Part shown: in pieces, positions 7,812 to 12,820 of the stretch
How positions within the stretch are numbered: position 1 is the stretch's first letter
How the letters are laid out: each line of letters opens with the position of its first letter
DNA from: a virus
Direction: 5' to 3' (one strand)
DNA: 14,876 nucleotides
Virus genome (UHGV): UHGV-1725451
Made by a program: the position numbers and the translations under genes
Notes under the pieces: generated by a model
What the model saw: the letters and a program-made list of their open reading frames with translations, nothing else
What the model was told of the DNA's origin: nothing
Database searches by the model: none

Positions 7812-8351
7812 TCATATTGCCCCCAGCATGGTGGTGACCATCGCCATCAATGGACCAGCCAGATCCGGGTCCACTCGAAACATCGACACAATGCCTTCAC
7901 TCATCTCCTTCAGTTTCTGGTGGCGTGGTGCGTTGAGAATGACCGCCTGCTTTGCCTCACTGAGTTCCTTTTCCATTTCAGCCAGCCGAGCCATGAAGCT
8001 ATCCTGCTCAACCAGGTGGCCGCGATATTCCAGCGGTAGTACCGCCAGAATTGCCGGGGTCAGTTCACGCACGTTATTTCGGTATTTTTCAGAATCGAAT
8101 TTGTTATCGAGGAAGCGGAACAGCTTCTGGCGTGCACGACTGACATCATCAGGAAAATCGATGGTGCCGCCGCCCTGTGCTCGATACTCATTCACAATGA
8201 GTGCGGCAACTACATCCTGATTATCTTCAGCAGACCAAGCGCGGACGGCATCACGGATTTTTTCGTGGCCTGGCACCTGTTTTGTTTGAGAACGATTTAT
8301 CACCGCAGTCGGGCTAAATCCGCTAGTCTGTTGGTATGTAAGTGGTTGCAT
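7812..8351 (-). CDS. YdaT-family / CII-position regulatory protein (function uncertain)
   Basis: 179-aa ORF with a good ribosome-binding site (AAAGGAG), located between the cro-like gene and O, where lambdoid phages carry cII. Resemblance to Rac prophage YdaT-type proteins is from memory and not verified. Confidence 0.55.
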   Translation of the reverse strand: MQPLTYQQTSGFSPTAVINRSQTKQVPGHEKIRDAVRAWSAEDNQDVVAALIVNEYRAQGGGTIDFPDDVSRARQKLFRFLDNKFDSEKYRNNVRELTPAILAVLPLEYRGHLVEQDSFMARLAEMEKELSEAKQAVILNAPRHQKLKEMSEGIVSMFRVDPDLAGPLMAMVTTMLGAI

Positions 8352-8420
8352 AATTGACTCCTTTAGTTTGAATTGACTGTTAAGTTGATTGCTTATTGTT
8401 AAAGAGCGTGAAATGGAAAT

Positions 8421-8651
8421 TTAAGCTGCGTTCTTTTCGGTGTGTGGAAACAACTTCGGAAGATCCGGGCGAATCTGGTATGCCTTCACTACTCCACCAG
8501 TAGCCGTAACAATGCTGCCGACATGTTCAGGGGATACCTTTGCTTTGTTGTGAAGCCACTTATAGACGGCCTGCTGTGAAACTTCGCAAGCAGCGCCCAG
8601 TTTCTTTTGTGAACCAACGATATTGATCGCTGTTTTGATAGCTGGGTTCAT
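8421..8651 (-). CDS. Cro/YdaS-like small HTH DNA-binding protein
   Basis: 76-aa ORF MNPAIKTAINIVGSQKKLGAACEVSQQAVYKWLHNKAKVSPEHV... with an HTH-like segment. GGAGG ribosome-binding site. Transcribed divergently from the repressor. Confidence 0.7.
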   Translation of the reverse strand: MNPAIKTAINIVGSQKKLGAACEVSQQAVYKWLHNKAKVSPEHVGSIVTATGGVVKAYQIRPDLPKLFPHTEKNAA

Positions 8652-8678: not shown

Positions 8679-8749
8679 AGATTAAAACCATGGTTGTTTT
8701 TAGTCAACAACCATTTTCGTTTGATGGAATAAAACCTTGGTTGTACATT
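8679..8749. promoter_or_regulatory. divergent pR/pRM-like promoter region with operator inverted repeats (OR)
   Basis: Minus-strand candidate: -35 TTGACT (8702-8707), 17-bp spacer, -10 TAATCT (8679-8684), driving the cro-like gene. Plus-strand candidate: -35 TTGATG (8721-8726), 17-bp spacer, -10 TACATT (8744-8749), ending about 7 nt before the repressor ATG (possibly leaderless). Operator-like palindromes AAAACCATGGTTGTTTT (8684-8700), ACAACC (8707-8712) and AAAACCTTGGTTGT (8731-8744) overlap the spacers. Confidence 0.5.
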
Positions 8750-8755
8750 TGGACT

Positions 8756-9445
8756 ATGAAAACAACACTCTCAGAAAGACTTAAAGAAGCCAGATTAGCG
8801 CGAGGCCTTACACAAAAGGCGCTTGGGGATTTGGTCGGGGTTAGCCAAGCTGCTATTCAGAAAATCGAAACAGGGAAAGCTAATCAAACAACTAAAATCG
8901 TGGAGATCGCGAACGCTTTGGGTGTGCGCGCAGAATGGTTATCTTCTGGCGTTGGAAATATGTCAGACAGTACAGTGCAACCAATACAATCAACTGTCAG
9001 CCATTCCAAATACTTCAAGATTGACGTTCTTGATATAGAAGTCAGTGCTGGGCCGGGAGTCATCAACCGTGAGTTTGTAGAAGTTCTACGCTCGGTTGAG
9101 TACTCGTTTGACGATGCTCGTCATATGTTCGATGGTAGGAAGGCGGAAAATATCCGCATCATTAACGTGCGTGGTGACAGCATGTCAGGAACGATCGAAC
9201 CAGGTGATCTGCTGTTCGTTGATATCACAGTTAAATCTTTCGACGGTGATGGTATCTATGCGTTTCTGTACGACGACACAGCCCATGTAAAGCGCCTGCA
9301 AATGATGAAGGATAAGCTGCTGGTCATCTCTGATAACAAAAGCTACTCACCGTGGGACCCGATCGAGAAAGACGAGATGAACCGGGTGTTCATCTTCGGT
9401 AAGGTTATTGGGAGCATGCCGCAGACATATAGGAAGCATGGGTAG
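8756..9445 (+). CDS. cI: CI-type prophage repressor (N-terminal XRE-family HTH, C-terminal S24 LexA-like peptidase domain)
   Basis: ORF 8690-9445. Probable start MKTTLSERLKEARLARGLTQKALGDLVGVSQAAIQKIETGK (HTH). C-terminal GDSM serine motif (INVRGDSMSGTIEPGDLLFVD) and lysine (HVKRLQ) typical of autocleaving repressors. Confidence 0.85.
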   Translation: MKTTLSERLKEARLARGLTQKALGDLVGVSQAAIQKIETGKANQTTKIVEIANALGVRAEWLSSGVGNMSDSTVQPIQSTVSHSKYFKIDVLDIEVSAGPGVINREFVEVLRSVEYSFDDARHMFDGRKAENIRIINVRGDSMSGTIEPGDLLFVDITVKSFDGDGIYAFLYDDTAHVKRLQMMKDKLLVISDNKSYSPWDPIEKDEMNRVFIFGKVIGSMPQTYRKHG

Positions 9446-9566
9446 TACCAATTAAAAATTATCAACTGGGCATTGTGCTCATTCAGTAAAGAACTAATTC
9501 CTATCTTTGCTCTAGGTAGTAATATTAAGCCACCGCAATAATATCTTTACCTAACGGCGTAAGAAT

Positions 9567-9592
9567 CCCGGTCACCGTGCCGGGTTTTCTTT
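9567..9592 (+). terminator. putative intrinsic terminator after the repressor gene
   Basis: CCCGG(U)...(G)CCGGG stem of 5-6 bp followed by TTTTCTTTT. The stem is short, so confidence is limited. Confidence 0.4.
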
Positions 9593-9706
9593 TGCCCTCC
9601 CCTCATCACACACACCGTTAAAAAAACCACCATAACCTCGCTTCAGTTATCGCTATGCGATTCAAGTCACAAAATAAATCCATCCTAAATACAACCAGTT
9701 ATATCT

Positions 9707-9763
9707 AAAACAACCAATAAAACAACTTTTGTTGTTGACGGTAAAACAACTATAGTTTTAAAT
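9707..9763 (+). promoter_or_regulatory. pL-like promoter with OL-type operator repeats
   Basis: Candidate -35 TTGACG (9735-9740), 17-bp spacer, -10 TTAAAT (9758-9763). Three direct AAAACAAC copies (9707-9714, 9719-9726, 9743-9750) and an AACAAC-TTTT-GTTGTT inverted repeat (9721-9736) share the ACAAC(C)/GGTTGT half-site seen at OR. Confidence 0.45.
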
Positions 9764-9956
9764 AAGTTCATCGCAACAACACAACGATACGGCAACCACC
9801 TGATTCACCGTTGCGATGACCGCTTAGATCCGCAGTTTGAATTTCAGCAGGCTTCGGGGAGTGCGAGGGGTGAAACGGACGCGTGAACGTCGGTGTGACC
9901 AGCTGAAATCAACTCAACATTTCATACCTTAGTCGCTTCAACGAGGCGACTTAGTT

Positions 9957-10247
9957 ATGACAACCGGCGGCCATCCACCGCCTGAATACGCGCAGAAGTC
10001 TCTATATGTTCAGCAGCCCAGCTTACGGGCAGGAGTTTTTATGGTTCATCAACATTACGGAACGCAGACCGTTAATCGAGGTGCGGTCATGCCAGGAATG
10101 CTGGTCAAACACAAAGATGGTACCTGGACTGCATCAGCTAATTTACGCGGACGGCTTTATCTGCATCGCGGCATCGAGCGCACTTATACCCGTGATTTGC
10201 TCGTGGAAGTTTTTCTCGACGGACGCGGTAACGGCCTGAATCGCTAA
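9957..10247 (+). CDS. hypothetical protein, first gene of the left operon (96 aa from 9957; alternatively 68 aa from ATG 10041, which has the better ribosome-binding site AGGAG-N5-ATG)
   Basis: ORF-track frame [13 protein letters not shown]...[69 protein letters not shown] recognise no homolog. Occupies the position where lambda has N-ral-sieB-cIII-kil. Confidence 0.4.
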
Positions 10248-10322
10248 TCCCCTTTCCTGTTTTCCTAATCAGCCTGGCATTTCGCGGGCGATATTTTCAC
10301 AGCCATTTTCAGGAGTTCAGCC

Positions 10323-10619
10323 ATGAACGCTTATTACATTCAGGATCGTCTTGAGGCTCAGAGCTGGGCGCGTCACTACCAGCAGATCGCCCGTGAAGAG
10401 AAAGAGGCAGAACTGGCAGACGACATGGAAAAAGGCCTGCCCCAGCACCTGTTTGAATCGCTATGCATCGATCATTTGCAACGCCACGGGGCCAGCAAAA
10501 AAGCCATTACCCGTGCGTTTGATGACGATGTTGGGTTTCAGGAGCGCATGGCAGAACACATCCGGTACATGGTTGAAACCATTGCTCACCACCAGGTTGA
10601 TATTGATTCAGAGGTATAA
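10323..10619 (+). CDS. gam: Gam (GamS form), RecBCD inhibitor
   Basis: 98-aa [101 protein letters not shown], near-identical to lambda GamS as recalled. Confidence 0.85.
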
Positions 10620-12722: not shown

Positions 12723-12820
12723 ACATGAAAAGCAAAATCATCAGGGAGCTACAGGCTCCTTTTTTATTATTCGCATTCACCCTCAAGCGTATTAACCAAC
12801 AATTCAGGGATTAATGAAAG

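Follow-up and report, generated by a model that had tools for sequence, protein, structure and literature searches.

We propose that the segment between the repressor gene and gam (positions 9446-10322) in a 14,876-nucleotide (nt) stretch of the UHGV virus genome UHGV-1725451 (hereafter, the window) comprises the control region and the first gene of an N-independent early-left operon, carried by a DLP12-like lambdoid prophage of the 4A7/Bievrevirus type. We assign this reading a probability of roughly 55%. It draws on the absence of N, nutL and put from the left operon, on a conserved RNA element made of a hairpin and a mini open reading frame (ORF), and on the identification of the first gene as a member of the KilR family. 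The leftward operon corresponds to the plus strand of the window, and the coordinates of the features are collected in Table 1.

The segment is 100% identical to a prophage of Escherichia coli 266917_2. This prophage is DLP12-like and lambdoid, with the order Q, rusA, ninE, ybcN, ybcK, emrE, ren, P, O, immunity region and kil-gam-bet-exo. Near-identical modules are present in the isolated phages PhiR34_1, Turner, IdasGreatGrand, 4A7 (genus Bievrevirus), 1W, 3W, Perceval and the PhiR series; the module-bearing phages are isolates deposited as complete genomes by several studies, and they cover at least three immunity types. The module is also found in 1986 of 5426 complete E. coli genomes, counting every genome with a place that covers at least 80% of the 877-base pair (bp) segment. 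That length, measured from the repressor end at 9445 to the gam start at 10323, agrees with the gap of about 880 bp reported in an earlier inspection of this DNA (hereafter, the original prediction).

The original prediction described the segment as a non-lambda module without N, and our searches bear this out. To identify an N-like gene, all plus-strand ORFs of at least 20 amino acids (aa) between the repressor gene and gam were inspected, and none was found: only the Kil ORF has a family, and the other plus-strand ORFs of this size are a 22-aa ORF and a 31-aa arginine-rich ORF. Annotation by PGAP gives no N across the whole prophage, from Q to int. The plus strand of 9770-10322 holds no boxA within 3 mismatches, and no boxB-like short stem-loop beside a boxA was seen on reading the leader and its folds (no formal search was made).

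The N-less lambdoid phages HK022 and HK639 use put. A covariance model of put (R2), built from HK022 putL and putR and HK639 putL, detects put at 59-95 bits in HK022, in HK639 and in 20 of 100 IMG/VR loci that bear the hairpin and mini-ORF element. In the window leader and its close relatives, R2 has no match (E <= 10), also with filters off, and local alignment of 9771-9923 with nine put RNAs gave scores within the shuffle range. Membership of the leader in the put family is ruled out by these covariance model and alignment tests. As far as sequence can show, the left operon thus appears to carry neither N, nutL nor put.

The leader, of which the original prediction gave no features beyond a length of about 190 nt, is not featureless; it holds a covarying hairpin and a mini-ORF that are common to phi80, HK225 and HK639. 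The consensus of this element consists of (U)CAUACC, a hairpin of 9 bp that contains an invariable internal mismatch and whose loop ends in GAG, and then UU-AUGACAACCGGCGGCCAUCCACCG (AUG ACA ACC GGC GGC CAU CCA CCG CC). Distant blastn searches identified homologs in phi80, HK225, HK639, Klebsiella phage KO-TP1 and Enterobacter phages including ENT1, and pattern scans of IMG/VR gave at least 120 element-bearing matches, with at least seven distinct stem sequences among the matches listed. The element, as defined by covariance model R1, is present in one copy per locus, and none was found in Rac, HK022, lambda or the kil loci of other genera.

The conserved hairpin is real. Pairs were counted on a model-guided alignment (A4) that leans toward structure, the MAFFT alignment (A2) having misaligned the hairpins with shorter loops; on A4, which contains 40 distinct sequences, 96.6% of cells are paired and seven of the eight pairs have changed on both sides (69 cells). 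Covariation scored 0.749, as compared with 0.230 in shuffles, none of the 500 reaching the former value. Since slid-partner controls gave at most 48% paired cells, as compared with 96.6%, we argue that the signal is real despite the leaning of the alignment. A gathering scan of the whole window and an E <= 10 scan of 9440-10330 against Rfam returned chance-level matches only, with no family for the element, and nothing relevant on the mini-ORF peptide, phi80 tL1 or the lack of N in Bievrevirus was found in the literature searched. The element therefore appears to be undescribed in Rfam and in this literature, and it overlaps the old mapping of phi80 tL1.

The position of the element in other phages shows what the window lineage lacks. 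In phi80 (pL-nutL-N-tL1; M11919, NC_021190), the element (R1, 69 bits) directly follows the stop codon of N and tL1A, which is annotated as an intrinsic terminator, and it lies at the beginning of what the original GenBank record (M11919, 1985) labels the "t-L1 regulatory signal". In HK225, HK639, KO-TP1 and ENT1, it lies after the first pL gene or genes and a GC hairpin with a U-run. In window-type loci, it is preceded by ...CAGCUGAAAUCAACUCAACAUUUCAUACC, with neither a U-run terminator nor an ORF upstream, and this lineage therefore lacks the nutL-N-tL1A block of phi80 or the put-ORFs-terminator block of HK639. The phi80 arrangement shares with the window a KilR-family kil downstream of the element, but its mini-ORF stops after 21 codons, whereas here N and tL1A are absent and the mini-ORF runs into kil.

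A further arrangement was observed in two IMG/VR loci, L116 (6151-6300) and L119 (8420-8567, minus strand), where a genuine put RNA (94 and 91 bits, respectively) ends 8 nt before the element. In both loci, no ORF or terminator separates put from the element, and put occupies the slot of the private leader. HK639, and especially these two loci, resemble the window in the downstream hairpin and mini-ORF, as HK022 and HK639 do in the lack of an N gene and in a structured RNA at the 5' end of the pL transcript; they differ in that the present leader matches put neither by model nor by sequence, and no put-like copy is present in the right operon.

The AUG of the mini-ORF is the start at 9957 that the original prediction gave to its ORF, and it directly follows the hairpin. 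Elsewhere, the mini-ORF usually has 16-28 codons and stops before or overlaps the next gene, to which it is sometimes fused; examples end in ...ISAEVLY, ...IETLNKCVEVLY and ...AYFSHKRRSLV before the stop codon. A KilR-family gene is located 82-959 nt downstream in most loci that extend far enough. The mini-ORF carries a PPP motif at codons 7-9. Among its variants are the substitutions T3I and P8S, two types of synonymous change, a codon inserted in frame and a single divergent version, MTHGGYPPLM. Its 84-nt stretch is the most conserved of the region, with 0-1 variable sites per 50 nt versus 4-9 in gam, in loci picked for an identical Kil protein, which biases nearby diversity downward.

The original prediction reported a single unknown ORF at 9957-10247. 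This ORF exists, as does a 68-aa version starting at 10041, but it is not unknown, as it belongs to the KilR family. In profile searches, both versions match PHROG_294, "Kil protein for bacterial septation inhibition" (E 1.6e-38 for 96 aa and 1.7e-37 for 68 aa), and NCBIfam NF008465, "FtsZ inhibitor protein", the latter with E 3.6e-17 and below its curated cutoff (62 versus 92 bits). BLASTP of the 68-aa protein against Rac KilR of E. coli K-12 showed 36% identity over 61 aa (E 9e-13), and PGAP names the ORF "phage encoded cell division inhibitor protein". The protein can thus be classified from its sequence as a member of the KilR/PHROG_294 family and a predicted division inhibitor. KilR has been studied experimentally as an FtsZ/MreB inhibitor unrelated to lambda Kil, and its C-terminal tail is critical (PMC12482147). 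The protein shows no similarity to the 47-aa lambda Kil (Pfam Lambda_Kil type): BLASTP against it aligned nothing at E <= 100, and Pfam gave no match. No solved structures resembling the protein were found. As the ORF belongs to the KilR family, kil has been swapped rather than lost; the claim that a short module replaces all of N-ral-sieB-cIII-kil is therefore correct for N, which is absent, but has to be amended for kil.

Homology in Citrobacter, Kluyvera, Enterobacter, Silvania and Pseudocitrobacter begins exactly at ATG 10041, with a Shine-Dalgarno sequence upstream, and protein identity is 79-87%. Codon differences in kil are synonymous in 27-32 cases versus 10-15 non-synonymous, and third-position differences number 35-41 versus 6-11 at positions 1 and 2, a pattern that indicates a real protein-coding gene under purifying selection. 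An alternative-frame ORF at 10006-10239, taken from the PhiR34_1 annotation, was rejected, having no family match and many stops in other genera. It should be noted that public annotations of this region conflict (window 10006-10239; L001, 3561-3794; L002, 3377-3763): PhiR34_1 has a wrong-frame "hypothetical protein" and PhiR47_2 a 128-aa "Kil" that starts from the leader. Judging from these comparisons, the gene should be annotated as Kil, a 68-aa member of the KilR family with an optional 96-aa form, and the alternative-frame and 128-aa calls are regarded as errors. A terminator-like hairpin with a U-run (CCGUGAUUUGCUCGUGG AAGUUUUUCU) is present inside the 3' part of kil (window 10190-10215, plus strand).

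A close known counterpart, Rac kilR (E. coli K-12 b1352), encodes a homologous protein of similar size (73 aa versus 68 aa here), likewise in an early-left operon beside recombination genes and with a long regulatory 5' untranslated region (UTR). The two differ in the C-terminal tail of the protein, NF008465 being below cutoff for the present one, and in the leader, that of Rac having the KilS small RNA and its own terminator and lacking homology to the leader of the window. This 5'-UTR small RNA of Rac ends at an intrinsic terminator (L099, 6406-6503, minus strand). KilR-type genes seem to be repeatedly accompanied by long regulatory leaders.

According to our proposal, the cI transcript would stop at the terminator at 9567-9593, and pL, overlapped by three operators, would fire near 9770. 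Its transcript would contain, in this order, a private and structured 150-nt leader, the hairpin and mini-ORF element, the KilR-type inhibitor and the lambda-type gam-bet-exo genes, pL having presumably been joined through the private leader directly onto the ...UUUCAUACC of the post-tL1 block. Since the block of gene plus terminator is absent, RNA polymerase could reach kil-gam-bet-exo without a processive antiterminator. At the other end of the operon, kil-gam-bet-exo and three small lambda-like ORFs are tightly packed upstream of the intrinsic terminator at 12743-12770, and in the full prophage the integrase gene is on the opposite strand; the recombination genes would therefore also be reachable without such a factor. 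Together with the neighbouring AUG, the GAG(G) of the hairpin loop probably makes up a split ribosome-binding site for the mini-ORF, which would load ribosomes early on the leader, coupling translation to transcription and setting the amount of Kil. It is also conceivable that the mini-ORF acts as a polyproline-stalling leader peptide that modulates the access of Rho.

On the right operon, the proposal assigns a role to an rrn-type boxA. The exact boxA 12-mer (8407-8396, minus strand) occurs once in the window and is kept in relatives of the same immunity type; with the upstream CAC it reads CACGCUCUUUAACAAU, and no boxB hairpin follows it. The CAC-GCUCUUUAACAAU of the pR transcript, right after cro, is almost identical to the rrnG extended boxA, CACUGCUCUUUAACAAUUUA, and a published study reports that an rrn boxA with its flanks suffices to counter Rho-dependent terminators (PMC2724277). 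Between cro and Q, the right-operon strand has no predicted strong intrinsic terminator. It is plausible from the sequence of the site that host Nus factors, recruited through this boxA, act in place of N on the right. Unlike rrn antitermination, the present case involves the right operon only and a candidate site, and other immunity types of the phage group have a different post-cro signal.

In three loci of such other immunity types (L005, L006 and L098), the interval between cro and ydaT lacks boxA and carries UUGUUUAAC followed by a hairpin, GCCGCCUAAACUGCGGC. This hairpin resembles the tL1A stem of phi80 and KO-TP1, GCCGCCUAACCAGCGGC, without the U-run, which gives the interval the look of a nut site in an N-less phage. 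In the slots of cro and "cII", the window (7812-8651, minus strand) encodes YdaS-like (Pfam YdaS_toxin, E 4e-17) and YdaT-like (E 8e-30) proteins, a pair that is found in Rac and is not homologous to lambda Cro and CII.

N-less lambdoid phages and KilR-type Kil proteins are already known; what the window presents is a left operon with neither N nor put and a right operon with an rrn-type boxA. LLS, for instance, has been described as N-less, and put was speculated for it (PMC12315714).

Several points weigh against the proposed operon. Almost no variation is seen in the first 24 nt of the mini-ORF, even at synonymous sites, and the reading frame of the block GCGCAGAAGUCU downstream differs among phages, so that part of the constraint is probably on the RNA and not on the peptide. 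A 187-nt untranslated and partly C-rich leader should be a good substrate for Rho, so that some protection may be required, which could come from the private leader. Taking into account that put occupies the private-leader slot in L116 and L119, a cis-acting RNA function is a serious alternative. In addition, the transcription start, the translation of the mini-ORF, read-through, the involvement of Rho and the function of boxA are steps that we infer.

Rho could itself be the regulator. Under this explanation, which would be compatible with the proposed operon and which we consider doubtful, the leader serves mainly as a Rho-dependent attenuator that silences the toxic kil when pL leaks, and the hairpin and mini-ORF are the switch, ribosome loading or a polyproline stall blocking Rho. 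Rac kilR, with its 5'-UTR small RNA and terminator, offers a precedent, as it is silenced by Rho/NusG (PMC12482147). In phi80, the homologous region is located at the beginning of tL1, a signal defined by experiment in which a Rho-dependent tL1B is annotated, but the sequence 3' of the element in the window is not homologous to tL1B. Likewise, C exceeds G at 9740-9849 and 9900-10029 and the mini-ORF has its PPP motif, although the C/G skews of the leader are modest.

Alternatively, the private leader (9770-9919) could be a new cis-acting antiterminator or processivity RNA, similar in kind to put of HK022 and HK639 but unrelated in sequence, which would modify RNA polymerase and thereby make pL transcripts resistant to Rho and downstream terminators. 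We judge this unlikely. Beginning at +1 of the pL transcript, the leader spans about 150 nt, has two stem-loops and is about 97% conserved over three or more immunity types; exactly this slot is filled by a real put RNA in L116 and L119, where put abuts the same element, and put-like RNAs in N-less lambdoid phages have been speculated by others (PMC12315714). Against this stand the put model and alignment results given above, and the right operon, where instead of a second copy of the leader the pR transcript has the rrn-type boxA. The structure of the leader also speaks against it: the folding energies of hairpins 1 and 2 are no better than those of shuffles (z = -0.4 and -0.7). Four sites vary in the outer stem of hairpin 2; according to our reading of these sites against the fold, two break a pair, two only lead to a G-U wobble and none is compensated. 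No homologs of the private leader were found outside the phage group, and no homology was found to the Rac kilS/kilR leader, the left arms of HK022 or lambda, or the kil leaders of other genera. The leader and the pR transcript do have a 13-mer in common, AAUCAACUYAACA, located at 9907-9919 (plus strand, just before UUUCAUACC) and at 8390-8378 (minus strand, just after boxA); L116 has AAUCAAACGAC at the matching spot, and the sharing of the 13-mer could be due to chance.

The original prediction stated that no arginine-rich ORF resembling N is present. Such an ORF does exist (31 aa, 9837-9932), but it is not supported as a gene, and it is very improbable that it (9837/9861-9932) encodes a miniature N-like RNA-binding peptide which would be joined to Kil as an N-terminal extension in the CAG variants, the majority. 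Its RGVKRTRERR stretch presumably resembles arginine-rich motifs, its frame is open into kil in 47 of 53 distinct sequences, and PhiR47_2 is annotated with this frame fused into Kil. However, the ORF has no PHROG or Pfam match and no tblastn relative outside the phage group, single sequences carry frameshifting insertions or deletions of 1 nt and 5 nt, and the TAG/CAG polymorphism at 9930 that decides between stop and sense falls on the always-mismatched, and hence free, third position of the conserved hairpin. In addition, the leader has no boxA and no boxB-like hairpin was seen in it, and Kil of other genera has no such N-terminal extension. We therefore rejected the ORF both as a gene and as a mini-N.

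That the arrangement is the functionless decay product of a defective prophage that lost N, as might be suggested by the adjoining deletion scar of a cargo gene and by DLP12 of K-12, a defective prophage, is hardly tenable given the identical architecture in phage isolates with complete genomes and in 1986 of 5426 E. coli genomes, across at least three immunity types, and the purifying selection on kil.

Table 1. Features of the repressor-gam segment and its surroundings in the window
Feature	Position	Strand	Description and evidence
Conserved RNA element	9924..9980	+	AUACC, 9-bp hairpin 9928-9954, UU, AUG ACA ACC GGC GGC CAU CCA CCG; covariance model R1, 85.8 bits
Mini-ORF body	9957..10040	+	In frame into kil in the window lineage, giving an optional 96-aa form
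kil, predicted KilR-type FtsZ/cell-division inhibitor, 68 aa	10041..10247	+	AGGAG Shine-Dalgarno; PHROG_294, E 1.7e-37
Lineage-private 5' leader	9770..9919	+	5'-terminal hairpin 9770-9817; branched hairpin 9834-9914 without a following U-run
Arginine-rich 31-aa ORF (..RGVKRTRERRCDQLK..), rejected as a gene	9837..9932	+	No PHROG/Pfam match; no tblastn match outside the phage group
rrn-type boxA, CAC GCUCUUUAACAA U (candidate)	8395..8410	-	Between the cro stop, which it directly follows, and the YdaT-like gene; the nutR position
cI-like repressor (helix-turn-helix and S24 peptidase)	8756..9445	+	Pfam Peptidase_S24, E 1.5e-18; HTH_3, E 6.5e-13; PGAP coordinates from a 100%-identical genome
Cargo-gene scar, last ~76 nt of a gevA/ASCH-type gene	9487..9562	+	PhiR47_2, IdasGreatGrand and 4A7 homology begins at query position 42, inside the 3' end of the GevA/ASCH coding sequence
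Intrinsic terminator closing the repressor (pRM) transcript	9567..9593	+	Stem 9567-9584, 6 bp with 5 GC pairs, then TTTTCTTTT
Operators OL3-OL1 and pL	9688..9763	+	-35 TTGACG 9735-9740; -10 TTAAAT 9758-9763; inferred start ~9770; AAAACAAC repeats cluster here and at pR
Junction and lambda-type gam leader	10241..10322	+	Alignment to lambda; remnant of the GamL N-terminal coding sequence
gam (GamS-size, 98 aa), then bet and exo	10323..10619	+	Pfam Gam, E 8.8e-65, and annotation
Strong intrinsic terminator after an orf61-like gene	12743..12770	+	8-bp stem (AGGGAGCUACAGGCUCCUU), then TTTTTATTATT (UUUUAUUAUU)

The putative terminator that the original prediction placed 3' of the repressor gene was confirmed as a stem with a T-run, and relatives keep it after cI and any cargo genes. 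In relatives with other cargo, homology returns exactly at this terminator (query 115-122), and the gevA/ASCH-type gene of relatives lies between cI and the terminator, which is the position of rex. The remnant of such a gene at 9487-9562 is a deletion scar. The slot between repressor and terminator (window 9446-9566; L002, 1648-3076; L005, 2049-3650; L098, 5660-7076) is a cargo hotspot that contains, in relatives, GevT/GevA, a SIR2-family protein, or a 353-aa protein together with an ASCH-domain protein.

A pL-like promoter with operator repeats had also been predicted. The repeats do cluster at pL, where together with the pR control region (9707-9750 and 8693-8766, respectively) they account for five of the six exact AAAACAAC copies in the window, but the pairing of TTGACG with TATAGT does not hold, the two being only 10 nt apart and TATAGT (9751-9756) forming the centre of operator OL1. 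On the opposite strand, pR has TTGACT, an operator inside a 17-nt spacer and then TAATCT. Because this layout parallels that of pL, we reassigned the -10 of pL to TTAAAT (9758-9763), which would give a 17-nt spacer and a start near 9770. The leader length of about 190 nt in the original prediction fits the 187 nt from this start to ATG 9957, and the distance to ATG 10041 is 271 nt. Immunity appears as an exchangeable unit, relatives of other types losing homology at 9771 or 9804.

The sharp mosaic junction reported just 5' of gam was recovered by alignment with lambda, identity starting at about 10241-10247, that is, at the last codons and the shared stop codon of kil; megablast matches to lambda-like kil/gam regions begin at query 796-799. 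The GamL-like peptide said to mark the abrupt onset of lambda-like coding sequence about 80 bp before gamS does exist, although an insertion of 1 nt has shifted it out of the gam frame. The alignment thus identifies the junction as a gene-boundary swap with its recombination joint at the kil stop codon. Lambda itself has the same arrangement of a repressor, a terminator, pL under three operators and a division inhibitor directly before gam-bet-exo, with identical sequence from the kil stop onward. It differs in that N, nutL, ral, sieB, ea10 and cIII are absent here, kil is unrelated and the GamL extension is destroyed; about 550 bp separate pL from gam, as compared with about 2.3 kb in lambda. 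At its far end, the early-left operon probably stops at the 12743-12770 terminator; the genes beyond it (a 216-nt ORF, a TraR/DksA-like gene and a DUF4222 gene) would need their own promoter or read-through.

The N/nut system of lambda is the textbook model of processive antitermination, yet plaque-forming phages, and more than a third of the complete E. coli genomes, carry a layout that has neither N nor put. The layout shows a simple route to N-independence, the loss of the block of N plus tL1A, and indicates two candidates that could stand in for N: an rrn-type boxA in the right operon and, in the left operon, a leader element. It is tempting, if speculative, to regard the hairpin and the MTTGGHPPP mini-ORF as an undescribed and widespread cis-regulatory element, in which a split ribosome-binding site drives a leader peptide whose EF-P-dependent polyproline stall gates Rho termination (the classical tL1) and thereby sets kil, or else to regard the private leader as a new class of put-like RNA. 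If the former is true, the hairpin and mini-ORF would be, in the N-less lineage, the only checkpoint left between pL and kil. This element, which is also found in Klebsiella and Enterobacter phages, could then explain how expression of a toxic division inhibitor is gated.

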